A stretch of DNA of 64,000 nt, from the IMG/VR virus record IMGVR_UViG_3300032053_000008. One strand, 5' to 3'. The position numbers and the translations under genes are program-made. Each line of letters begins with the position of its first letter. Position 1 is the stretch's first letter. Positions 36,797 to 63,164 of this stretch are shown here, piece after piece. The notes below the pieces were generated by a model. It had not been told where the DNA came from. It made no database searches and saw nothing but the letters and a program-made list of their open reading frames with translations. This DNA comes from a virus.

Positions 36797-37324
36797 TTAG
36801 GTTTTGGCTATGTAACCAGCTTTTTGAATATTGTTTTCTACCCATGAAGGTCCGCCCTGTTCAGCATAAGATAAATCGATATTTGGTAACAATCTACTTA
36901 CCTTAAGTACGTTTGCACAAAACTCGCTGCAAACCATAGTATCAGGTCCATCTCTAAGCGGGTTTTTTATGTTTTTACCTAAAAATCCCGCAAACTTAAC
37001 CAAAGCCATACCCAACAACTGTTTGTAGCCATATGGATTACCAGACACATTATTGATAAAGATTAAAACATTTTTGATGTCTTTATGGTCAAAAACATCA
37101 AAACAATATTCTTTGATTATGATATTTTTATGAATATTGACAAAGTTGTCTTTAGTTAGTGTATGGATGTTCCATTCAGCGGCCTGCAGAACAATATCTT
37201 GACCAGTTAAAGGGTGGATGTAACTAATATAGCAATGAGAATAAGGCCTTTGTTCGGCCCAACGCAAAAGTTTTGAAAAAAGTAAATTTCTTTTGCTAAA
37301 CCCAACCTTTAGTTGCATGTTCAT
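36797..37324 (-). CDS. permuted papain-like amidase (NlpC/P60 YaeF/YiiX type)
   Basis: YSHCYI (His) precedes G.PY and CSEFCA (catalytic Cys), the permuted order. Confidence 0.8.
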   Translation of the reverse strand: MNMQLKVGFSKRNLLFSKLLRWAEQRPYSHCYISYIHPLTGQDIVLQAAEWNIHTLTKDNFVNIHKNIIIKEYCFDVFDHKDIKNVLIFINNVSGNPYGYKQLLGMALVKFAGFLGKNIKNPLRDGPDTMVCSEFCANVLKVSRLLPNIDLSYAEQGGPSWVENNIQKAGYIAKT

Positions 37325-45546: not shown

Positions 45547-46041
45547 CTAGTCATTATTTGAATCTGATAGAACCTTTGCCCTAAAGGTTCCTGTCATTTT
45601 ATACCATTCTTTATACAAAAAAGCATTAGATTTACCGTAGTTACATCTACTGCAGCAAACTACGCAACTCTTATTGGTATAACCTCCATCATTTTCTTTT
45701 CTGTCTAAAAAGTATTTACCAGAATTAAAAGATTTCCATTCAATTAAATCATAACAATAGTGACATCTTTTTATCTCAACAAACATCAAGAAATCATTAA
45801 AAGTAATATCTATTGGTAAATTTTTCTTTTTGGCGGTATTTACCAATGATTTATACGACTTATTAAATGGTTCCATTCTTTGAGAACAAACAGTACATTT
45901 ATCGGTCACCCTTTTAAAATGTCTTACTCTTAAGACATTGTCGCAGTCGGCGCACTTGAAAATATAAACATGATGTCCAGATGGTTGAAGCTCTTTTCCA
46001 ATAGCCAAATCCTTATTAAACTTAAACACCGCAGACACCAC
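45547..46041 (-). CDS. HNH-like (zinc-finger) endonuclease
   Basis: CADC, CTVC, CHYC, then LDR.EN..GY.....V.CC..CN..K; overlaps the 3' end of the RNR gene. Confidence 0.8.
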   Translation of the reverse strand: MVSAVFKFNKDLAIGKELQPSGHHVYIFKCADCDNVLRVRHFKRVTDKCTVCSQRMEPFNKSYKSLVNTAKKKNLPIDITFNDFLMFVEIKRCHYCYDLIEWKSFNSGKYFLDRKENDGGYTNKSCVVCCSRCNYGKSNAFLYKEWYKMTGTFRAKVLSDSNND

Positions 46042-47644
46042 CTACACATTCCATTTCTTTTTCCTCATAAACAACACCCTCAAAACTCATAGCAACATCA
46101 AGAGGAATTCTAGTCAATGGCTGTCCACCTCTCGATGCGTCTGGGTAACAAGTAAACCCTCTTAATCTTTTGGCATACTTCAAAAGAGTTGAGCTGTAGT
46201 CTTCCAGCGTTTCTTCTGAATTTTCTTCCGTTCCCCATTGAGGTAAATTACATGTAGAGCTAATAGACATATCTACATAATTTTGCACATCTGCTTGAAA
46301 TTTAACGCGATCTTTAAATGATATGTCATAAGCATCTTGAATTTGATCTAGCTTGACACCAGAAGCCAAAAGACGCTTAACCGCTCCATCAACCACATAC
46401 TCAAAGTGCCACTCCTTGTCTTTTAGATACCGGCGCTTATAAGCTTTGCAAAACAAAGGCTCTATGCCTGTTGTAGTTTCAGCAATAATACCAATAGTAC
46501 CAGTTGGGGCAATAGCTCTAATACCTTTTGGCATAGCCACACCTAAAGACTTAGACCATATATAAGCCGAGCTATTTGATTCTTGTTCATAAAGGTTAAG
46601 CCATTTATGGAGTTCTGGGGTTACTTCATATTTGTAACCCCTTTGCATTAACCATTCGTGCATTCCACCTAAACCTAAACCTATCCTGTTGTTTTTATTG
46701 CCAACTTCTTTAATTTTATCTGTTGGAACCTGAGAATAGATACCCCCACACAACAAAAAAGCTGTGGCTATATGGCAAATACGCGCAAACTCTTCTTTTG
46801 ATGAACACCTGTTCATCCAAACGGTACCTAGATTACACTTGTCAGAATCATCTGAACTGGTTACTTCAGTGCAAGCGTTTCTCAATGATTCCGAGTCTTT
46901 ACAGAAATTAAAACTCATGCCAGGTTCGGCAGAGGAAAAAGCTTGCTTGCAATTATTGTCCCACACTTTTTTAGCTTTAGTGTGATCTGGATGTAGCGGA
47001 TTTTCAATTGCAACAAAGAAAGAGGTATCATAAATTACTGATATGTTTGTTCCTTCCATTGACATAGCAAAATTGAAATCTTTATCTTTAAGTTCTCTCA
47101 AGTTTTGTGGCCAATCCTTAAGATGAATAAACTTATGAATATCGGCATGGTCCCACTGCAGTCCTGCCCAAATAGCCGATCTTCTTTGCCCACCCTGCAT
47201 TATATATCTACCAGCTTCATTTACCATGTGCATTAAAGCTAGGGGACCGGTAGAAGTTCCACCGGTTTTTCTAATAATAGCCCCCTCTGGACGCAGCAAA
47301 GAATAGTCAAAACCTATACCTCCACCTGACATTAAAGCTGAGGTGGTTTTATACATTGCATCTGCCCATCCTTCACGGCTATCTTCAGCTCTAAAAAGAA
47401 AGCAGTTATTGACCTGATGAAACTCTCTCCCTGATGCGTACAAGTACCTTCCACCAGGGATAAACTTGCGATCTAGCATAGCTTGAAGGATTTCTTGTTT
47501 AAGTTCTTGTGGCAAAAGTTGATTGGTAACTGAATCAACAACCCGTTGACAGGTATCTTTCCATGTCTCCTGGCCGTTCATTGAGTATTTTTGAAGGTAG
47601 ATATTGCTAGCAAAAGAAGAAGAAAACGGTGCAAAATTAGACAT
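46022..47644 (-). CDS. nrdJ: ribonucleotide reductase large subunit, probably class II (B12-dependent)
   Basis: PGGR, NNCF, GGGIG, RNACTE, CNLG, APTGT, TGIEP and C-terminal CxxxxC; no ATP cone and no beta subunit adjacent. Start ATG 47644 after AAGGAG. Confidence 0.8.
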   Translation of the reverse strand: MSNFAPFSSSFASNIYLQKYSMNGQETWKDTCQRVVDSVTNQLLPQELKQEILQAMLDRKFIPGGRYLYASGREFHQVNNCFLFRAEDSREGWADAMYKTTSALMSGGGIGFDYSLLRPEGAIIRKTGGTSTGPLALMHMVNEAGRYIMQGGQRRSAIWAGLQWDHADIHKFIHLKDWPQNLRELKDKDFNFAMSMEGTNISVIYDTSFFVAIENPLHPDHTKAKKVWDNNCKQAFSSAEPGMSFNFCKDSESLRNACTEVTSSDDSDKCNLGTVWMNRCSSKEEFARICHIATAFLLCGGIYSQVPTDKIKEVGNKNNRIGLGLGGMHEWLMQRGYKYEVTPELHKWLNLYEQESNSSAYIWSKSLGVAMPKGIRAIAPTGTIGIIAETTTGIEPLFCKAYKRRYLKDKEWHFEYVVDGAVKRLLASGVKLDQIQDAYDISFKDRVKFQADVQNYVDMSISSTCNLPQWGTEENSEETLEDYSSTLLKYAKRLRGFTCYPDASRGGQPLTRIPLDVAMSFEGVVYEEKEMECVGGVCGV

Positions 47645-47693
47645 ATATACTCCTTTAGTGATTTTTTGGGATAAAAAAACCACAAGCTTACTG

Positions 47694-47722
47694 ATTGTAG
47701 CCAAGTAAGTTTGTGGGGTCAA
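47694..47722 (-). promoter_or_regulatory. sigma-70-like promoter for the RNR gene
   Basis: TTGACC-N17-TACAAT. Confidence 0.7.
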
Positions 47723-51238: not shown

Positions 51239-52648
51239 TTATTTCTTCTTTGCTTTAGATGCCTTAGCATCTAAAGCAGCTTTCTTTTCTTTAGCTCTTA
51301 CGAAGTTATGTTTGTCGTCTTCAGCAAACTCTTTAGAATCTTCTTGTTCGCTTGAAACAGATTTATCTGGATTCACAGGGTTAGCCCAAGAATTATCCGA
51401 ACCCTTTTTTTTGTAATATTTAGGTTCCCACTCTTCTTTAACTAATGATTTAACCATATCCTTAGACCAGAAAGTACCCTTAGAGTTTTCCTGTTGTCCA
51501 CCTGAACCGTTTTGGCAATCTTTTGGAGCTTCTACAGTTTTAGGTGGGCAATTTGTCAAGTTTTTAGCTAACTTGATTAACAAAAGCTTAGAAGGATTAG
51601 AAATAAGCTTTAAGTCTTTGTTCTTTTTGTCTTTTAATGGCATTGCCATGATTTGCAAAGTCTTTTGCAGACTTTCTGCATATCCGGTACCCATTTCACC
51701 AGCTGCCTTGCTTAAAAGGAGCAGTTCATTTTTCATGAACTCTGGGAAACTGACAGCAAATTGGTCCCATTTAGCAAACTTAGGGATAAACGGGCTAAAA
51801 ATTTCTTTTTTAATAATTTGACGATCTTTTGCCGCAGTAAGATCTTTATCAATCTTTATTGCATGCATGTCTTGAGAATGTGCTTTTATTCTTGCAGTTC
51901 GCAGATCCCAAGGTCTCCCCTTTACTTCACCTCCACGGCTTTTAGCACGGTCTTTTGACTGATTTTTTTCCTCTGTTAAATCTGCATCCGATTCATTAAC
52001 GCTACCCTTGTTCATCATTCCCTCAACTGAAGACTCATTAGAAGGTATCATAGAAGCATCTGCTTTTACAATAGCTTTTTTAGAGGCTTGCTGCCGAGAC
52101 TGAATAGTATCTAGGGCAGTAGTTGGACCTTTAGGGGCGGTTGGTGCTGGAGCTGGAGCAGCTCCTTTACCATACAGTTTAGCCTTAAGGGCTTTAGTGT
52201 TGGCAGCTTGAGCGATAGGATGATTCATGTCTTTATAGTTCAAAACAGGCGCATTGGCTTCATTTGAAGCAGGTTTGGCGTTCATTTGCTGATAATTCAG
52301 AGTATTTCCAGTAGGTTCCGGTTTTTTAGGAGCTGGATTAAGTAAAGACAAGTCAGACTGTGGTTTATTGGTAGCCATGGTTGCTACTGCGGCTTGACCG
52401 GCTGGACTGGCTACGGCAGGCTTAGCTTTATGGGTAAGTGCATCCATAGCACTTTGAGCGGCTGGATTAAGACTAGCTTTAGCCATAGTAGGCTTAGGGG
52501 TAGCCATAGCTGCCGGAGCTTTTGGGGCAGCCGGAGCTTTTATTGCTGGAGCTGCTGCAGGCTTTGGAGCCGACATTTTAGGGGCAGCTGGGGCAGACGG
52601 TGCCGCTGGAGCTGTCGCTTTAGGCATACTTGGTTCTGCGGGTTTCAC
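51239..52648 (-). CDS. Ala/Pro/Lys-rich low-complexity protein, putative internal head protein
   Basis: PAAP/KAP repeats; many hydrophobic-x-K-[SAG] motifs; AGGAG RBS with GTG start. Confidence 0.65.
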   Translation of the reverse strand: MKPAEPSMPKATAPAAPSAPAAPKMSAPKPAAAPAIKAPAAPKAPAAMATPKPTMAKASLNPAAQSAMDALTHKAKPAVASPAGQAAVATMATNKPQSDLSLLNPAPKKPEPTGNTLNYQQMNAKPASNEANAPVLNYKDMNHPIAQAANTKALKAKLYGKGAAPAPAPTAPKGPTTALDTIQSRQQASKKAIVKADASMIPSNESSVEGMMNKGSVNESDADLTEEKNQSKDRAKSRGGEVKGRPWDLRTARIKAHSQDMHAIKIDKDLTAAKDRQIIKKEIFSPFIPKFAKWDQFAVSFPEFMKNELLLLSKAAGEMGTGYAESLQKTLQIMAMPLKDKKNKDLKLISNPSKLLLIKLAKNLTNCPPKTVEAPKDCQNGSGGQQENSKGTFWSKDMVKSLVKEEWEPKYYKKKGSDNSWANPVNPDKSVSSEQEDSKEFAEDDKHNFVRAKEKKAALDAKASKAKKK

Positions 52649-52695: not shown

Positions 52696-55356
52696 TTAGA
52701 TCTTTGTGGACTTACCAGACGGAAGCATTTTGACCGCCGATAAATCGCTAGTATGTTGATTTTTAACGGGTATTTTGTCGTATAGCATAACTGAGTTAGC
52801 GAAAGTAGGGGACTCATGTCCGCTAGCTTTCCAGCCTTTATACCCCATAGACTTCAGTTCATTGTGGACCAGGTCTGGGTGACTAAGCGCGTGTTCGCTT
52901 GGTCCGTAGTGCTCTTTGTGCTTGTCTTTTACCTTGGCAAACACTTTGTCTGGGTCTTTGGACAAATCGTAGATGTCTTTGTCTTTGACTTGTATATGGT
53001 ACCTGGACAAGTTGTTGAACATTTGTTCAGCGTCTTCTCCATTAGATCCGTAAGTATGCAAATAGTTTGCAGGTTTAAAACCTGGCATATTATGGTTAAG
53101 GTATTCCCGGCTTTGCTGGATACGGGCCTTTTCTTTGCCTGCCTGACCGGTAAACTGGAAAGATGGGTCTAGGGACTGAAGGTCTGGATGCCTACTAAAA
53201 TGGACTAGATCTAGCACCTTAAAATTATCTTCAGCTTTGGATATTTTGTCCCAAACACCCATTGCTGCGGGGGTTTGAAGCGAGGAACCTAAAACCTCTT
53301 TACCGGAAACTTTTTGGGCATGTTGATACATTGCAGTTGCCAGCCCTTTTCTTTGATGTTCAGGGAAAACATTAGTCATACCAGGCATAAGTTTATTTTC
53401 ATGGAGTTCGTGAGGAACAATTATGGTATGGCCAACTATCTGACCTTGTGGACTTTTTGCATAAACGTGAAGTTCATCGTGCTCTTCCTTGTCAGACAAA
53501 TCTTCATCTTGATTTGCCTTCCATTCATGAAAAACATGATAACCTTCTTTTCGCCAATCACCATTTTGGCCTTTTTCTAAGTCTTCAGCTTTAGATATAG
53601 CTTCAGACACCTTGCGATTGTGTTTTGTGTTTGACATCACAGCCAAAACAGCTTCAGTCAGGTTTTGGCCCATACCTGCCGTAAGGTTAATAGAATACTT
53701 TGTTTCCAATTTGGTCATAAAGTCGTAAAGTTCAGATTTTTCGGTAGGCGGCAGTGTAAATATAAAATCGCTACCAGCAAACCCCAGGAAATCTCCTGCG
53801 TGCTCTTCTATAAAAGACTCTATGTCTATTTTGATGTGTTGCAGCTTTTTGATTTTGTCGGTTAGCTCTTTTGTGCTGTTAGATTCCAGGGAGTCAACTA
53901 TGAAATCATATATGTCCTGGAAAGACAAACACACGGTAACCGGTTTGTATTTTTTGTCTTTTGGGTGACTTTTTTCTAGGGACTTAAAAAGCTCTTCGCT
54001 TGGCTTAGGCCAGCCAAGGTTTACCATAGTTTCTATGGCTATTTGCCTTTGTTCGGATTTACCAAAAGGACGATTTTTTTGACCCCATAAAGCATAAGCA
54101 TCCTCTGATTGTTGACCATCAGTACCTCTAATCTTCTTACCAGTTAACTTTTCTGCCATTACATATGCCGATGTTGCTAACCCTTTACGTTGATGTGTAT
54201 CTTCGGTATCACTATTAACAATACCCAGATGTTTTCCAGTATGATCGTGTTCGAAAATATAAAGCCCTGCCAACTTACCGCTTGGATGATAGGCATGAAT
54301 AATTACGCCATATTTATTAACTTTAGGGGTAAGTTTATAGCCTTCTTTTTGCCAATCACCATTTTGACCTTTTTCTAGGTCTTCGGATTTGTTAACAATA
54401 CCTTTACGCTTAGCCATTTCTCCAGCCCATTTGCTGACGTTTCTGTCTGGATCTCTAAGGCCCATCTGAACCGTGGTTTCATCTGCACCAGGATGAGACA
54501 ATAAAAGCTTTTTTATTCCCCACTTAGGATGGTTCATCATAAAGTTAAGTTCAGCAGGTTTATAGTTTTTATGTTTAGCCATATAAGGGGCTGCTGCAGC
54601 ACCATGAGTATGAGGGGCACCAAAGTCACTGTTAACTATGTCGGTAGTTGGGAACTTGGTGTTGTCTCTAGGCACATTTTTGTGGGGGCTTACAATAAAT
54701 TCGTCTTCGTGTCCGTGACCGGCTGGATCTGTGTCAGGGTGACCTAACTCATAGCTGAACCAAACGTTCTTTAAAGGAACGTGCTGGTGATGTTCATGTT
54801 GACCAAATTGTCCTTGAGTTTTGTCGGCTATGGAATACAAAGCATGGTCATCTCCCCTTTGGCTTGGGGTTATGTTCATGTTCCTAGCCAGACGCAAATG
54901 GGGGGTACCATTAAGTTGGTCTACGGCCTTAGGGGCATTTTGGGTAATAGTGTCATGCAAGCTACGCTGGTGAGCTAGTAGCTGCGGAACAATATGAGGG
55001 TTTTGGGCTAGACCGGCGCTAAGGCTATCTGTAGTTATGTGACCAATCTTTTTCGCGGCATTGCCTTGTTGGTGATGACTCAAAAACGCCTGGTCCATCA
55101 TTTTTTGTTGGTCTGGCTTAGATGCCGAATAAGCGTCAGCATTTTCAGATCTGTGGATAGCGTACTTTAGCAAAAGAGATGAAGGTGAATGGGGAGAATG
55201 CTTATAGCTAGAATACATCTCATTTAGTGTAGCATTTGGCTTAAAGTGCGGCGTAGGTGCGCTAATAGGCAAACTAGAATGGACCTGTAGCCCAATTTGC
55301 TTGTCTTGGCTGGTACTAGAAGACAATGCACTTGGGTGTTTAGTCATCGTTATCAT
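52696..55356 (-). CDS. polyvalent effector protein: ART-like / GNAT / degenerate mCpol / GNAT / ART-like
   Basis: R-S-ExE pattern (LARN, YSIA, HEDEFIV); two HQRKGLAT acetyl-CoA motifs; mCpol-like AGSD...TAGMGQNL.EA; C-terminal VHFS...LDP...IYDL...GYKG. Confidence 0.75.
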   Translation of the reverse strand: MITMTKHPSALSSSTSQDKQIGLQVHSSLPISAPTPHFKPNATLNEMYSSYKHSPHSPSSLLLKYAIHRSENADAYSASKPDQQKMMDQAFLSHHQQGNAAKKIGHITTDSLSAGLAQNPHIVPQLLAHQRSLHDTITQNAPKAVDQLNGTPHLRLARNMNITPSQRGDDHALYSIADKTQGQFGQHEHHQHVPLKNVWFSYELGHPDTDPAGHGHEDEFIVSPHKNVPRDNTKFPTTDIVNSDFGAPHTHGAAAAPYMAKHKNYKPAELNFMMNHPKWGIKKLLLSHPGADETTVQMGLRDPDRNVSKWAGEMAKRKGIVNKSEDLEKGQNGDWQKEGYKLTPKVNKYGVIIHAYHPSGKLAGLYIFEHDHTGKHLGIVNSDTEDTHQRKGLATSAYVMAEKLTGKKIRGTDGQQSEDAYALWGQKNRPFGKSEQRQIAIETMVNLGWPKPSEELFKSLEKSHPKDKKYKPVTVCLSFQDIYDFIVDSLESNSTKELTDKIKKLQHIKIDIESFIEEHAGDFLGFAGSDFIFTLPPTEKSELYDFMTKLETKYSINLTAGMGQNLTEAVLAVMSNTKHNRKVSEAISKAEDLEKGQNGDWRKEGYHVFHEWKANQDEDLSDKEEHDELHVYAKSPQGQIVGHTIIVPHELHENKLMPGMTNVFPEHQRKGLATAMYQHAQKVSGKEVLGSSLQTPAAMGVWDKISKAEDNFKVLDLVHFSRHPDLQSLDPSFQFTGQAGKEKARIQQSREYLNHNMPGFKPANYLHTYGSNGEDAEQMFNNLSRYHIQVKDKDIYDLSKDPDKVFAKVKDKHKEHYGPSEHALSHPDLVHNELKSMGYKGWKASGHESPTFANSVMLYDKIPVKNQHTSDLSAVKMLPSGKSTKI
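53543..54384 (-). repeat. 44-bp direct repeat pair (53543-53586 and 54341-54384)
   Basis: Both copies encode EDLEKGQNGDWxKEG directly before a GNAT domain. Confidence 0.9.
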
Positions 55357-56407: not shown

Positions 56408-57258
56408 TATGCGCCCCTGAAATAGTCTTCTAAAGACTTTACTATTTTGTCCCATTCTTTAGTAGCATAATCGTATGCGGCAGGAATACTGTGAAGAGGT
56501 TTAACTTCGGGGTACATCCACCTTCCCTCTGCCTCATGCTTGCTACTTACAACCCTAAATGTAACTACTTCTTTTTTGACCTTACCTCTTTTAGATGGTC
56601 TTTGGACCACAACTCCACCTGACAGATAGTGAGCACCTTCGTAGTTTGGTAGCCCTAGAGCTTCAGCTTCATCAGCTGTACGCCCTTTAGACCGGTATTG
56701 GTATATGTTGTCGCTAGCCGGGTCATTTAACTGAGGGATGTCTTTTAGCCTGTTAACTATGCCAATCATTGGCATTCCATCGGGGCCTTTTTCGATTTTA
56801 CGCATACTGACGCCATTTGCCTTAAGGGAGGCATCTATAGCTTCTCTCATACCAGAAGGAGTGGTCAGAGCGTTTTTGTCATGGCTAAAAGGTATGACCT
56901 TGAATTTACTGCCATCTTTGGCAGTCTTAAGTCCCGGACCTGGTTTAAGCAGCCAGTCTTCTGTTGCCATACTCACGGCTGGCCTACCGCTCTCGACCCA
57001 CTTAGCTGATTCATCGATTTCTACTACCCACATATTCTTAGAAACTTGTATCCATCTGATATTGCTACCATCTTCACCTAAAAATGCTTCTAGTGGGTAA
57101 CCTTTTAAGTGGTCCTGAGCATACTTGATAATAAAAGCGTGGGTGGAAATAGAAAGGGCCTCTACAGCCCCATTCAATTTCTTTGCTACCTCTTTTTCTA
57201 CAACACCTAGCTTATCAGCTATTTCTTTGTAGTTAGCCCTTATGGTAAAGTCGGTCAC
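56407..57258 (-). CDS. neck / head-tail joining protein
   Basis: K..KDG....VIPF.H and TFRVVS.......W.YP motifs seen in myovirus neck proteins. Confidence 0.65.
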   Translation of the reverse strand: MTDFTIRANYKEIADKLGVVEKEVAKKLNGAVEALSISTHAFIIKYAQDHLKGYPLEAFLGEDGSNIRWIQVSKNMWVVEIDESAKWVESGRPAVSMATEDWLLKPGPGLKTAKDGSKFKVIPFSHDKNALTTPSGMREAIDASLKANGVSMRKIEKGPDGMPMIGIVNRLKDIPQLNDPASDNIYQYRSKGRTADEAEALGLPNYEGAHYLSGGVVVQRPSKRGKVKKEVVTFRVVSSKHEAEGRWMYPEVKPLHSIPAAYDYATKEWDKIVKSLEDYFRGA

Positions 57259-58472
57259 TGCTGCTTAGCCTTTTGTTGTTGATTGTTGGCTTTTACCGAT
57301 ATATCAGTACCATCGGTAGCCTGAACTTGGCCTGAGGCCATTGAGCGCCATACTTCTTTACCGTTTACCAGAACTTTTTTGTAGTTGCCCTTGCGGGTTC
57401 CAACAGGGAAACGGATACCAGACATAGCCTGAGGACCAGAAGAACTGACGCCCTTTTTTTCTAGGTCTTGTTCAGATTTTTGAACTTGCTTGGCGCTGGT
57501 GATCAATTTCTGGATCATAGACATAGTTTGCTGGAAAGCTTTAGGGTCCTTGCTGGCCATAGCCATAATCTGAGGTATTTGCGCCTTAACGTCTTTAAGT
57601 TTGTCCATTAATTCTTGGTTGTGGTCGGCGGTAGCTTCTTTGGTAGCATCATCGACTTCTTGAGCTACTTCTTGTGCTGCCTGTTCTTGTTCCTGTCCGT
57701 CACCTTCGCCCTGTTGTTGTCCAGGTGCCTGTTGTTGTTGAGGCTGACCACTAAGTTGACCAAGCAAATCAGTAGTATTGGTATTAGCATGGGCATCTGG
57801 GTCTTCCTGGCCTTGCGGCTGTTGTTGTTGCTGGGCTTGTTGTTGTTGCATCATTTGCTGTTGTTGTTGAGCGGCTTGTTCGATTTCCCCGGCACCAAGC
57901 ATTTCATTTATGGCTTGAATAAACTGGGCTTCAGCGCTAAAACTTTCTTTTAGAGACATACGCTTGGGCACTGGATTAGATTTTTGGTCTATAACTTTTT
58001 GGTAAGGCTTGTCATCTGGCTGTTCTGGGTCAAATAGGTTGGTAGGCAAACTGACGTTTTGATTTATGTTTGTTCTTGAATTGGAAGTTTTTGTAATTTT
58101 TTCTTGGTAAGTATCTGCCGGATTAAAAAGTTCAACTTTACCAGTTTTATAAGATTTCTTGGCAGCCATTGCCGCTTCTTGGAAATCTAATCCAACACCA
58201 ATAGCCAGTCCATCTCCAGCAGTTTCGGTAAAGTTTTCAATTAAATTAGGTAGTTCTGCCGCTACATCAATAGGTATTTCCATAGCTATAAAGTCTGGAT
58301 TACAAAATGGCATAGATCCACCGTGGGATTCCACAGTAGATTTCATTTTGTCTATAAGTCCCTGTAATTCAAACTGATAATGGTTGGCTACGCTAAATCG
58401 GCCCTCTTTGGCCGAATTAATTAGTTTGTCTCTTACTGCATCCGCAAATATAACTGCCCATACCTTACTCAT
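57255..58472 (-). CDS. protein with N-terminal degenerate mCpol-like domain and poly-Gln region
   Basis: VIFADAV...VESHGG....NPD...AIGVG....EA..A.K...GK; QQQQQMMQQQQ tract. Confidence 0.6.
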   Translation of the reverse strand: MSKVWAVIFADAVRDKLINSAKEGRFSVANHYQFELQGLIDKMKSTVESHGGSMPFCNPDFIAMEIPIDVAAELPNLIENFTETAGDGLAIGVGLDFQEAAMAAKKSYKTGKVELFNPADTYQEKITKTSNSRTNINQNVSLPTNLFDPEQPDDKPYQKVIDQKSNPVPKRMSLKESFSAEAQFIQAINEMLGAGEIEQAAQQQQQMMQQQQAQQQQQPQGQEDPDAHANTNTTDLLGQLSGQPQQQQAPGQQQGEGDGQEQEQAAQEVAQEVDDATKEATADHNQELMDKLKDVKAQIPQIMAMASKDPKAFQQTMSMIQKLITSAKQVQKSEQDLEKKGVSSSGPQAMSGIRFPVGTRKGNYKKVLVNGKEVWRSMASGQVQATDGTDISVKANNQQQKAKQQ

Positions 58473-61457: not shown

Positions 61458-61858
61458 AAAGTAAACATCCTTTTGATTCTATCAAGGAAAGTCGGCTTGT
61501 TGTGTTCTGGTTCGATTTCCTTGTCTTCAAAGGCATTGTCTCTAATAATATGCTCTTTTTGATCTTCTCTGGCCCGATACTCTAACCACTTATAAAAATC
61601 AAAAGAAAAATCAATGCTTTTAGGTAGCTGCAATTGAGTTTTAATTAATGGTTTTTCTTTATTAAAATGGGCCGCCAAATAAGAAGTACTGTTAAAATAC
61701 CTCAATAAGAAAACTTTTGCTTCATCAAGATCTTTTGCTTTGTCTAGCATAAGGCTTATGGATGGGTAACTTTCAACAATTGGTTCCATGTCAGACCAGT
61801 TGTTAACTTTAAACTGTTTTTCTTCATTGCTCATGGTGTTTTTAACTATTAATATCAC
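61454..61858 (-). CDS. hypothetical protein
   Basis: Coupled ORF in the structural cluster. Confidence 0.65.
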   Translation of the reverse strand: MILIVKNTMSNEEKQFKVNNWSDMEPIVESYPSISLMLDKAKDLDEAKVFLLRYFNSTSYLAAHFNKEKPLIKTQLQLPKSIDFSFDFYKWLEYRAREDQKEHIIRDNAFEDKEIEPEHNKPTFLDRIKRMFTL

Positions 61859-63164
61859 CTAAGAATTTCCTTACCTTGTGTGACATAAACGGAGTTAAAT
61901 GTTTGGCCCCATTTGGCATCTTGTCGTCATGGGCAAGTATATCACGGAGTTTAAGTTTGTCTAGGTGTTTATGGTAGTCAGTTTTTTTGCCGTTGTCTTG
62001 CATAAGAGCTTTAGTTATATGAAGTTTGGCTTGGATTCCATTGTCGTTATGTGGAAAATTACCTAATATTTCTAACAATTTATCTTTAGGTATATCATTA
62101 AACTGCTCTTTGCCTGTAGCTGAGCCAACAGCTTCAGATATATCCCATGGATTATGAGTTTTTCCATGCAAAGATTTAGCTACGTGATTTAAAGCTTTGT
62201 CTGGGGTACCATCAAGATATAGAACATTACTTTTGTTTTTTGGTTGATCTGCGGAAATATCCGAAAAGAATGGTTCATGCCCAGCTAAAGTGTCATTTGC
62301 CCATTTAGTCATGGCATCGTGTCTGGATTTATAAGAAGATACTATGTGATTTTTCCAGTCATCATGTTTAATGCCGTTAGCTTCATCAATCAAAGAGCCT
62401 TTAACTTTTGGAGCACTATTTAACCACCAAGATGCTAAATTTTTAGCATGTTGGTGGTCTCTATCGGCCTCTGGAGTAAAACGATATAAAGCACTGTTAC
62501 GCGTTAAGTCTTCCATTGAGTTAGTACCACGATCATAACCAAAAGCGAAAGAGTGATCAATAGCTAGTGGACTGTGATACCCTTTTTGGTCTGGAAGATT
62601 ATTGGCCATTATATTGCCAGAATGTCTGTCAATATTACCTGTAAGGTAGTCCATTACATTAATTTTATTAGCAACAAGTGGATCTATTTGATGTTTTTGA
62701 TGGTTATATTCTTCAGTATTATCAGCAAACTTGTGGACCATTACCGGCATTTCACCAATAGAAGTGCTTAGAGTGTGGTGTTTTACATCTTCGATGTTGT
62801 GGTGTAGGCCAGCCGCTTCGTACATTCTTTTTGTGGCTGAGGTAGCAAATCCACCTAAACCGTTGTTTACTTTAGAGTTATAAGGCTTAACCATAAACGT
62901 ACTGTTTGGCGTTTTGTATACCAGCTTGTCTTCATACCCTTCAGCCATATTTTTAGGCTTGTGGTGTTCGCTAGAAGACACGGCTTGATCAAAGTCCGCA
63001 TGACCGCCAGCAGATTGGGTAGGTTTCAGATATGACGCAGATTCTTCATTGTGGGCCTTACTAGCAAAATCAGTCAATGAGGGCTGGTCTAGCTTTTTAG
63101 CCAGCAACTGTTCAGTAGGTAAGTACTCAGGTTGAGTCCTTAGTGTATACCACGCCTTTATCAT
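61842..63164 (-). CDS. HipA/PI3-PI4-kinase-like protein kinase
   Basis: FMVKP (ATP-binding Lys), DYLTGNIDRHSGN catalytic loop, LAIDH metal-binding motif. Confidence 0.8.
   Translation of the reverse strand: MIKAWYTLRTQPEYLPTEQLLAKKLDQPSLTDFASKAHNEESASYLKPTQSAGGHADFDQAVSSSEHHKPKNMAEGYEDKLVYKTPNSTFMVKPYNSKVNNGLGGFATSATKRMYEAAGLHHNIEDVKHHTLSTSIGEMPVMVHKFADNTEEYNHQKHQIDPLVANKINVMDYLTGNIDRHSGNIMANNLPDQKGYHSPLAIDHSFAFGYDRGTNSMEDLTRNSALYRFTPEADRDHQHAKNLASWWLNSAPKVKGSLIDEANGIKHDDWKNHIVSSYKSRHDAMTKWANDTLAGHEPFFSDISADQPKNKSNVLYLDGTPDKALNHVAKSLHGKTHNPWDISEAVGSATGKEQFNDIPKDKLLEILGNFPHNDNGIQAKLHITKALMQDNGKKTDYHKHLDKLKLRDILAHDDKMPNGAKHLTPFMSHKVRKFLGDINS

Follow-up and report, generated by a model that had tools for sequence, protein, structure and literature searches.

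The gene on the minus strand at 52696..55356 of the window (the whole 64,000-nucleotide stretch of viral DNA that was analysed) is real, and its 886-residue product, here P0001, probably (at roughly 60%) represents a head-packaged polyvalent effector polyprotein that is built from exchangeable cassettes and cut in trans by a head-maturation protease. From the N-terminus, P0001 comprises an R-S-ExE ADP-ribosyltransferase (ART), a GNAT, an mCpol-like module, a second GNAT and an H-Y-type ART. Such a combination of biochemically disparate domains in a single chain is characteristic of the polyvalent proteins that Iyer, Burroughs, Anand, de Souza and Aravind described in 2017 from phages and conjugative elements (PMC5512222). 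Polyvalent proteins are thought to be the first strike of a phage against host defences, and the P0001 locus offers a concrete, testable answer to how they are processed and diversify. The earlier note, made from the sequence alone, had proposed this series of five domains, and it was borne out almost completely: all five calls were upheld, with qualifications concerning the metal motifs of the mCpol-like module and the Pfam match of the C-terminal ART. An alternative start at M4, from which the database copy of P0001 begins, gives 883 residues.

Five modules in one polypeptide

All features described below are encoded on the minus strand. A Ser/Pro/His-rich leader (aa 1-40, 55237..55356), kept only in close orthologues and without a family assignment, precedes the N-terminal ART domain (aa 41-235, 54652..55236). 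An R-S-ExE ART pattern had been suspected here from the strings LARN, YSIA and HEDEFIV, and this holds: among 48 homologues, E219 is invariant, and R158, S175 and E217 each show a conservation of at least 90%, with Q in place of E217 in some. The AF2 model of the domain (pLDDT 94.8) has the ART fold of the R-S-E clade, and C3/Tre1/ART2-type ARTs make up nearly all of its best structural matches in the PDB, with modest Z scores (~4.5). In this model, R158, S175 and the ExE motif are placed on β1, on β2 and at the start of β5 (model strands 116-125, 139-142 and 184-187), which reproduces the Arg on β1, the STS-like Ser on β2 and the [Q/E]-x-E before β5 of that clade; the first Glu alternates between Q and E, like in classical ARTs.

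The domain differs from the C3/Tre1/ART2/VIP2-type ARTs in several respects, namely an unusually short R-to-S distance of 17 residues, invariant blocks of its own (SYKHxPH, HRxEN and VPLKNVW[F/Y]SY), a richness in His and the lack of a match with the ART profiles of Pfam and NCBIfam. No ART family was matched in Pfam at E ≤ 1, nor in PHROGs or NCBIfam, by the domain or by any of its 48 homologues, and a PDB sequence-profile search with the alignment returned spurious helical matches only. Searching 50,697 deposited phage genomes by tblastn with either ART domain of P0001 gave nothing at E ≤ 1. A strict degenerate DNA pattern for the N-terminal ART had no match, and a shorter one found five IMG/VR contigs; ESM Atlas leads for the ART domains were ART-PolyVal (0.86) and a scabin-like ART (0.78). 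The model and the intact R-S-ExE triad point to a previously unmodelled, predicted R-S-ExE ART family. That a confidently modelled ART family is missed by current profile libraries matters for annotating NAD+-dependent functions of phages in host takeover and counter-defence.

A helical linker (aa 236-325, 54382..54651), again kept only in close orthologues, ends in the first of four junctions and leads into GNAT cassette 1 (aa 326-435, 54052..54381), which opens with the leader DLEKGQNGDWQKEGY and closes with junction 2. GNAT cassette 2 (aa 592-709, 53230..53583) closes with junction 4. The two GNATs recognised in the earlier note by the string HQRKGLAT both stand: aa 604-685 of the second match PF00583 (E 1.8e-6, 28.7 bits vs. 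a threshold of 20.7), and the first, which has no Pfam match of its own, is homologous to the second (39% identity, E 2e-19). In both, acetyl-CoA motif A (Q/R-x-x-G-x-G/A) is present as QRKGLA. A 54-nt direct repeat overlaps the start of each cassette, with copy 1 at 53539..53592 encoding KAEDLEKGQNGDWRKEGY (junction 3 plus the GNAT2 leader) and copy 2 at 54337..54390, 89% identical to copy 1, encoding KSEDLEKGQNGDWQKEGY (junction 1 plus the GNAT1 leader); the consensus of the products is K[A/S]EDLEKGQNGDW[R/Q]KEGY. The duplicated EDLEKGQNGDWxKEGY segment before each GNAT, as claimed earlier, is thus present, but its conservation at the DNA level exceeds the expectation from amino-acid identity and codon bias only weakly, 13 of 16 leader codons being identical vs. 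8.5 expected (P ~0.012). Leader DNA conservation was also considered as a sign of recent recombination, which these codon counts support weakly.

Between the two cassettes lies the mCpol-like palm module (aa 436-591, 53584..54051), the C-terminal end of which is junction 3. Its match at aa 481-575 is below threshold both in Pfam (PF18182, 22.1 bits vs. 26.4) and in NCBIfam (NF033576, 19.4 bits vs. 40). However, the orthologue P0004 exceeds the Pfam threshold with 30.0 bits, suggesting that the P0001 module is likely homologous to mCpol. The canonical palm motifs DGD and GGD[D/E] are absent from the P0001 orthologue group, which has S-F-Q-D and G-S-D-F in their places, and are retained in P0009, P0026 and P0135. 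The earlier label of mCpol-like for ~53620-53945 is kept, with the qualification that the canonical metal motifs have been lost.

The C-terminal domain (aa 710-886, 52699..53229) has conserved residues H719, S721, Y769, E777, Y786, D797 and G838-Y839-x-G841, of which the H, Y, E and GYxG vary little or not at all among the 14 sequences of its family. It matches phage polyvalent-protein domains structurally (BFVD E 3.6e-8), and its model places a His in strand 1 and a Tyr in strand 2, as in the H-Y-type ART fold. The likeness to polyvalent ART-like domains noticed earlier is upheld by structure but not by the Pfam ART-PolyVal sequence model (PF18760), which gave no match at E ≤ 0.1 with any of the 14 family members. 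For this domain, no ART was matched in Pfam, PHROGs or NCBIfam, and a word-based search that started from the C-terminal region recovered orthologues only. The domain structurally matches the anti-CRISPR protein 6kyf. Compared with ART-PolyVal (PF18760, Tox-ART-HYD2 clade), it has no evident counterpart of the HYD2 Asp in strand 5; its conserved acidic residues are E777 and D797, and it has a GYxG motif of its own. In the model, these two are the conserved acidic residues, and none lies on the strand after GYxG.

The enzymatic domains had been called His-rich, and indeed the His content is 6.5% vs. 1.7% for the proteome. Among deposited phage genomes, whole P0001 matched only a GNAT segment, in Tunturiibacter phage Tunturi_5. 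A structural match to an ejection protein of cyanophage A4, in which the paper on A4 describes no ART, is treated as a structural observation only.

A common junction motif and module exchange

All four junctions of P0001 carry [hydrophobic]-x-K-[S/A]-E, i.e., [L/F/I/M/V]-x-K-[S/A]-E: V-N-K-S-E at the end of the helical linker (aa 321-325, 54382-54396), F-G-K-S-E at the end of GNAT cassette 1 (aa 431-435, 54052-54066), I-S-K-A-E at the end of the mCpol-like module (aa 587-591, 53584-53598) and I-S-K-A-E again at the end of GNAT cassette 2 (aa 705-709, 53230-53244). Four sites compare with 0.17 expected, and none of 5000 shuffles reached four. Across the genome of the source phage, enrichment is limited to the head module plus the P0001 cluster, where 13 sites were found vs. 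2.07 expected (0/500 shuffles); the tail and baseplate genes have none, and the remaining genome has 5 vs. 2.5 expected. The putative scaffold carries four of the sites and the portal N-terminus one, and virion-cluster proteins adjoining P0001 are marked as well. The head and virion region of Myxococcus phage Mx1 shows the same signature (17 sites vs. 2.1 expected), including three in the scaffold and two in the portal, and the portal site lies in an N-terminal stretch that is otherwise unalignable between the source phage and Mx1. The major head protein has a single, internal site (aa 229) and none at its N-terminus, which counts against the main reading. In 139 relatives, the motif precedes all four domain types and has a 7.6-fold higher density outside domain cores than within them, an enrichment that is partly inflated by the common ancestry of the GNAT cassettes. 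A Glu-ending motif is common to P0001, scaffold, portal and other head proteins, suggesting that P0001 may be cleaved in trans by the head protease.

Orthologues in the syntenic loci are 886, 924, 718 and 659 residues long and differ only in whole modules gained, lost or replaced, each bounded by the junction motif. The slot of GNAT cassette 1 is missing in P0004 and P0005 and holds another GNAT in P0003, and that of GNAT cassette 2 holds a DGNHR-motif module in P0003 and DUF5661 in P0004 and is empty in P0005. At the DNA level, homology to the closest relative breaks at four points, 54369, 54068, 53572 and 53240, one at each junction. More widely, the four modules are arranged in over 20 different ways in a set of 141 proteins, and the partner domains in relatives include NUDIX, PI3/4-kinase-like, DUF5661, GGDEF, SLT and ParB-like domains. 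The earlier note had proposed that the repeat acts as a joint for recombination and cleavage through which domains are swapped. The comparison of domain order in related phages reveals a variable architecture, and the exchanges and all four breakpoints fall on the junction motif, so that the idea of a joint gains comparative support; cleavage at it is predicted from sequence.

Virion setting, proposed processing and alternatives

The source of the window is an uncultured myovirus related to Mx1, with a genome of at least 137 kb that is estimated to be 84% complete. The placement of the gene in a virion cluster, as read earlier, is confirmed: tail sheath and tube genes lie downstream and virion-protein genes upstream, and three relatives as well as Mx1 show synteny at this locus, the equivalent region of Mx1 encoding a 1479-residue polyvalent protein with related GNAT and C-terminal ART modules. 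The Mx1 literature consists of a genome announcement (PMC10720576) and includes no virion proteomics, and Mx1 is a cultured relative with the same motif signature. A candidate for the protease is a 555-residue ORF, located two genes downstream from that of the portal, that shares 43.5% identity with the N-terminus of the 'putative prohead protease' of Mx1. Its PHROG match is weak (E 5e-4 over 48 residues), it has no Pfam or NCBIfam match and no PDB sequence match, and its assignment as the protease is a weak one made from sequence. The Pfam S77 and S78 prohead protease models match nothing in the genome, and the ORFs between portal and capsid have no Pfam match. The ORF at 36797-37324 has a ClpP/crotonase-fold PHROG match without Pfam support and was rejected as the prohead protease.

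In the proposed mechanism, P0001 would be made late, alongside the virion proteins, with packaging into the head most likely. The head-maturation protease would probably cut after the junction Glu, as the head proteases of T4 and SPN3US do at their own x-x-E sites, yielding five pieces of ~12-36 kDa each. These pieces may enter the host with the DNA and there ADP-ribosylate and acetylate host targets, in host takeover or counter-defence. Modules could be inserted, deleted or replaced at the junctions, and they would be exchangeable in frame because each optional module brings its own flanking sites.

Other readings of the same observations have to be weighed. P0001 may be the same multidomain protein but remain uncleaved, i.e., one intact 97-kDa multi-enzyme, packaged or not, in which K-[S/A]-E represents flexible linkers, capsid-targeting or scaffold-binding tags, or recombination footprints. 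The weak protease call and the difference of the junction motif from published head-protease sites would fit this, as would the slight excess of codon identity in the leaders (P ~0.012), which is compatible with recombination or gene conversion; moreover, ~75% of polyvalent proteins have been supposed either to work as fused units or to be cleaved by metallopeptidase domains of their own (PMC5512222), and P0001 has no such domain. However, the motif is enriched in head proteins that are not modular, i.e., scaffold and portal of both the source phage and Mx1, and is absent from tail proteins, a pattern that recombination footprints would not explain, and the portal site stands in a stretch that otherwise does not align between the two phages. 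An uncleaved P0001 is considered unlikely. It is quite unlikely that P0001 is an unpackaged late cytoplasmic enzyme that modifies host or phage proteins, e.g., host factors or virion components, even though gene position by itself does not prove packaging, no N-terminal capsid-targeting signal was recognised in P0001, and ModA and ModB of T4 are ARTs that are not packaged (PMC5512222).

A mostly inactive P0001, the modules of which are decayed remnants or decoys (e.g., binders of nucleotides or NAD products), would agree with the mCpol-like module without DGD and GGD[D/E], with the C-terminal ART strand after GYxG that has no conserved acidic residue, and with the low Pfam scores of several modules. 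However, R, S and ExE of the N-terminal ART are invariant or nearly so in 48 diverse sequences, HQRKGLAT is intact in both GNATs, and the H, Y, E and GYxG of the C-terminal ART are equally well kept in 14 sequences. Such conservation indicates purifying selection on active sites, and a mostly inactive protein is considered very improbable.

Relation to known systems

Alt and the internal proteins of T4 are packaged in the head, processed by gp21 and injected, and the site motif of the T4 head protease is L/I-x-E. The survey of polyvalent proteins also cites Alt as a head-packaged, injected ART (PMC5512222). P0001 resembles Alt in having an R-S-E-type ART encoded among virion genes, a predicted Glu-ending site and a predicted early action on host proteins. 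However, no sequence similarity between the two is detectable (no Pfam ART match and weak BFVD matches only), and Alt consists of one enzyme that is cleaved once, N-terminally, whereas P0001 has four predicted internal sites between five modules. In giant phages, gp245 of SPN3US cleaves both head proteins and ejection proteins on the C-terminal side of A-X-E (PMC10052503). The ejection and inner-body proteins of these phages (substrates of SPN3US gp245 and phiKZ gp175) are like P0001 in the short Glu-ending motif and, for several substrates, in multiple sites. The cleavages in SPN3US and phiKZ mostly strip N-terminal propeptides, whereas the predicted sites of P0001 coincide with boundaries of enzymatic domains and with recombination breakpoints.

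Among polyvalent proteins, P0001 is typical in joining unrelated enzymatic domains (ART, GNAT and cyclase-type NTase) in one polypeptide, in its late, virion-gene setting and in an architecture that varies widely among relatives, and a GNAT as neighbour of an ART has been noted before (PMC5512222). Processing by embedded zincin metallopeptidase domains was proposed in the same survey; P0001 contains no embedded zincin and instead carries junction motifs common to head proteins. If the head protease cuts these junctions, a phage could acquire or exchange an effector enzyme without having to evolve fresh signals for its packaging or processing. More broadly, and at somewhat below even odds, Mx1-like myoviruses may assemble injected effectors as 'plug-and-play' polyproteins, in which cassettes are flanked by a protease motif that would serve as recombination joint, processing site and route of packaging and release. 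In this tentative reading, the N-terminal module would represent an R-S-ExE ART family that is new and widespread (~100 clusters at 50% identity) and that would bring Alt-type chemistry into genuine polyvalent proteins, where the founding survey stated that it does not occur (PMC5512222). Against the proposed processing, the junction motif has K at P3 and S or A at P2, unlike the sites of T4 (L/I-x-E) and SPN3US (A-x-E).

Gene setting and modules of P0001

The ORF of P0001 (52696-55356, minus strand) runs uninterrupted for 886 codons, and the copy of this protein in the public protein collection begins at Met4, with 883 aa. The parent IMG/VR viral record is 136.8 kb long with an estimated completeness of 84%, the G+C content of the window is about 41%, and the nearest cultured phage is Myxococcus phage Mx1 (55% identity in the major capsid protein), with which synteny is extensive over the head and virion modules. 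The gene sits inside a co-directional virion-gene block, followed downstream by a 469-aa ORF, a 94-aa ORF, a 914-aa tail sheath (phrog_279) and the tube, and preceded by nine ORFs that include a virion structural protein (phrog_1004), one ORF that starts with an mCpol-like domain and one that is PI3/PI4-kinase/HipA-like. Farther upstream lies the head module (major head protein, scaffold-position ORF, 1929-aa ORF, 555-aa ORF, portal and terminase). Two metagenomic contigs (96 kb and 45 kb) that carry the orthologues P0003 and P0005 keep this gene order around them. The overall reading of the earlier note, a polyvalent effector, was supported: P0001 counts among the polyvalent proteins as defined by Iyer et al. 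2017 (PMC5512222), and we infer its packaging, cleavage, injection, enzyme activities and targets.

The N-terminal ART domain (N-ART, aa 41-235) was recognised by no curated library searched. When 1.84 billion representatives were searched exhaustively with HMMER, 105 clusters emerged (93 with E <= 1e-10); in these, the core of ~185 aa occupies differing positions within proteins of 500-2400 aa. The residues that had been flagged from the sequence as LARN, YSIA and HEDEF correspond to R158, S175, E217 and E219, each of which is invariant or >= 90% conserved in an alignment of 48 sequences; the first acidic position is E or Q, as in the classical [Q/E]-x-E pattern. An AlphaFold2 model built from this alignment reached a pLDDT of 94.8 and a pTM of 0.91. 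Foldseek found no significant match to this model in the PDB, the list being topped by Tre1 (E 0.044), then ART2.2, XopAI, ExoT, CDTa, C2-I, Vis and C3. Matches in BFVD were weak only (E >= 0.017), and tblastn against deposited phages returned zero matches; thus, N-ART is a divergent R-S-ExE ART family without an existing model. Beyond the polyvalent-protein framework of Iyer et al. 2017, an R-S-ExE ART family here recurs as a module in such polyvalent proteins.

The C-terminal ART-fold domain (C-ART, aa 710-886) belongs to a family of 14 members with conserved H719, S721, Y769, E777, Y786, D797 and GYxG, and its AF2 model has a pLDDT of 84. Among eight BFVD matches at E <= 1e-3 are proteins named 'Large polyvalent protein associated domain' and one structural protein of a Flavobacterium phage, and entries named PolyVal ADP-ribosyltransferase stand lower in the list (E 5.8e-3 and 0.19). 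The proposed likeness to the ART-like domains of phage polyvalent proteins was therefore borne out in fold and neighbourhood but not in Pfam-family membership, as PF18760 matched none of the 14 members. The claim of His-richness held as well (6.5% of P0001 vs. 1.7% of the proteome).

Between these domains, GNAT2 exceeds the Pfam threshold, and GNAT1 is 39% identical to it (E 2e-19), both retaining the acetyl-CoA motif QRKGLA. The mCpol-like module is sub-threshold in P0001 and above threshold in the orthologue P0004. Aligned against canonical representatives of its protein class, the P0001 orthologue group carries S-F-Q-D in place of DGD and G-S-D-F in place of GGD[D/E], degenerate motifs suggesting that this module is probably not a cyclase; that it might bind nucleotides is speculation.

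A 405-aa ORF at 57255-58472 (minus strand) also has an mCpol-like N-terminus (Pfam E 0.0045; local HMM E 3e-6); its motifs are non-canonical, and a single junction-type site lies at aa 330. In Mx1, the ORF at the equivalent position (468 aa) likewise begins with an mCpol-like domain (E 2.4e-9), and the two gave no direct BLAST match at E 1e-5. The 440-aa ORF at 61842-63164 (minus strand), with a weak PI3/PI4-kinase match just below threshold (Pfam E 1.2e-5), is the richest in His of all phage ORFs (6.8%); it occupies the same position in two relatives, the equivalent region of Mx1 has an annotated 'kinase', and it is probably another packaged effector.

A junction motif common to P0001 and head proteins

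All four domain boundaries of P0001 bear [L/F/I/M/V]-x-K-[S/A]-E, namely VNKSE, FGKSE, ISKAE and ISKAE, ending at aa 325, 435, 591 and 709, respectively, where 0.17 sites would be expected per 886 aa (0/5000 shuffles). The whole phage has 18 such sites vs. 5.9 expected, of which 13 fall in the head module and P0001 cluster (2.07 expected; 0/500 shuffles), none in the tail and baseplate genes (1.1 expected) and five in the remainder of the genome (2.5 expected). The portal N-terminus and three ORFs of the same cluster bear them, and four sites of the form [hydrophobic]-x-K-S-E, at aa 23, 185, 236 and 273, lie in the 302-aa scaffold-position ORF (L002:4612-5520, minus strand; window-equivalent 68612-69520, outside the window), immediately upstream of the major head protein.

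The head and virion region of Mx1 has 17 sites vs. 2.1 expected: three in the scaffold-position ORF, two in the portal, three in a 1479-aa polyvalent 'NUDIX hydrolase', and others in further ORFs lying between the capsid and sheath genes, the kinase among them. No site falls in the Mx1 helicase, sigma-factor and nucleotide-metabolism genes, and one falls in the terminase large subunit. A count over 139 relatives gave 229 K[SA]E vs. 111 expected, 26 KSED vs. 3.8 and 14 K[SA]EDL vs. 0.6, with no enrichment of permuted control patterns; site density is 7.6x higher outside domain cores than inside, and the sites stand before GNAT, mCpol, C-ART and N-ART modules alike.

Cassette exchange at the junctions

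The backbone of N-ART, mCpol-like module and C-ART is common to four orthologues, which differ at two slots only. P0001 carries a GNAT in both. In slot 1, P0003 has a different GNAT, and P0004 and P0005 have no module; in slot 2, P0003 has a DGNHR-motif module, P0004 has DUF5661 and P0005 has no module. The optional GNAT cassette starts right behind one K-S-E and closes with a terminal ...NRPFGKSE of its own, so that insertion or deletion restores a single site, as in ...ILKTE/HAIE... of P0005 vs. ...VNKSE/[GNAT]...FGKSE/QRQIAIE... of P0001. The DNA of the window is collinear with the P0003 locus at 78-88% identity, save two blocks without detectable similarity, and the homology breaks at 54369, 54068, 53572 and 53240 are the four junctions. 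The 54-nt repeat encodes the junction and the GNAT leader. Of the DNA-level conservation claimed for this repeated leader, codon identity above expectation was found (13/16 vs. 8.5 expected), but the evidence for recent homogenisation is weak (P ~0.012).

In P0003 (L009:7001-9775), which comes from the closest relative, the module at aa ~633-745, the slot of GNAT2 in P0001, is an unrelated 'VDGNHR' module reminiscent of ParB/sulfiredoxin-type domains, without Pfam confirmation at E <= 0.01.

Proposed processing, candidate proteases and neighbouring ORFs

Head-maturation proteases described so far recognise short motifs and cleave after the Glu; T4 gp21 does so at L/I-x-E. The head-maturation protease gp245 of SPN3US cleaves after Glu at A-X-E (PMC10052503). 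The survey of Iyer et al. 2017 proposes domain release by embedded metallopeptidases (PMC5512222); in contrast, P0001 has no peptidase domain, and every junction bears the motif common to scaffold and portal, which points to processing of P0001 in trans by the head protease at these motifs. The putative processing sites coincide with the recombination joints. Alternatively, the motif could go uncleaved and be a linker, a tag for capsid targeting or a footprint of recombination. P0001 could also act in the cytoplasm late in infection, as T4 ModA and ModB do, and some of its modules may be inactive, the mCpol-like one probably so.

For processing in trans, the candidate head-maturation protease, judged from its sequence, is the 555-aa ORF of the head module, two genes downstream of the portal (L002:12976-14643, minus strand, outside the window). 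Over its N-terminal ~290 aa it shares 43.5% identity with the N-terminal part of a 1239-aa 'putative prohead protease' of Mx1, and it has a weak PHROG protease match (phrog_1028). Sequence searches of Pfam, NCBIfam and the PDB gave no match. As an alternative candidate we weighed a 175-aa ORF at 36797-37324 (minus strand), which matches a PHROG enoyl-CoA hydratase (ClpP/crotonase-fold; E 5.8e-11) and no Pfam family.

Inside the head module, the 1929-aa ORF (L002:6629-12418, minus strand, outside the window; 4.7% His, no family match) may encode a giant protein of the internal or ejection type. The 469-aa ORF adjoining P0001 downstream (51239-52648, minus strand) has no family match and differs in length among syntenic relatives (469, 410 and 355 aa), with ~190 nt at 51820-52007 lacking a counterpart in the P0003-bearing contig. 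At 45547-47722 (minus strand), a 566-aa RNR large-subunit ORF is directly followed by a 164-aa HNH/endonuclease VII-like ORF, a relative having a 630-aa RNR at this position; the pair may represent a homing-endonuclease insertion or a split gene.
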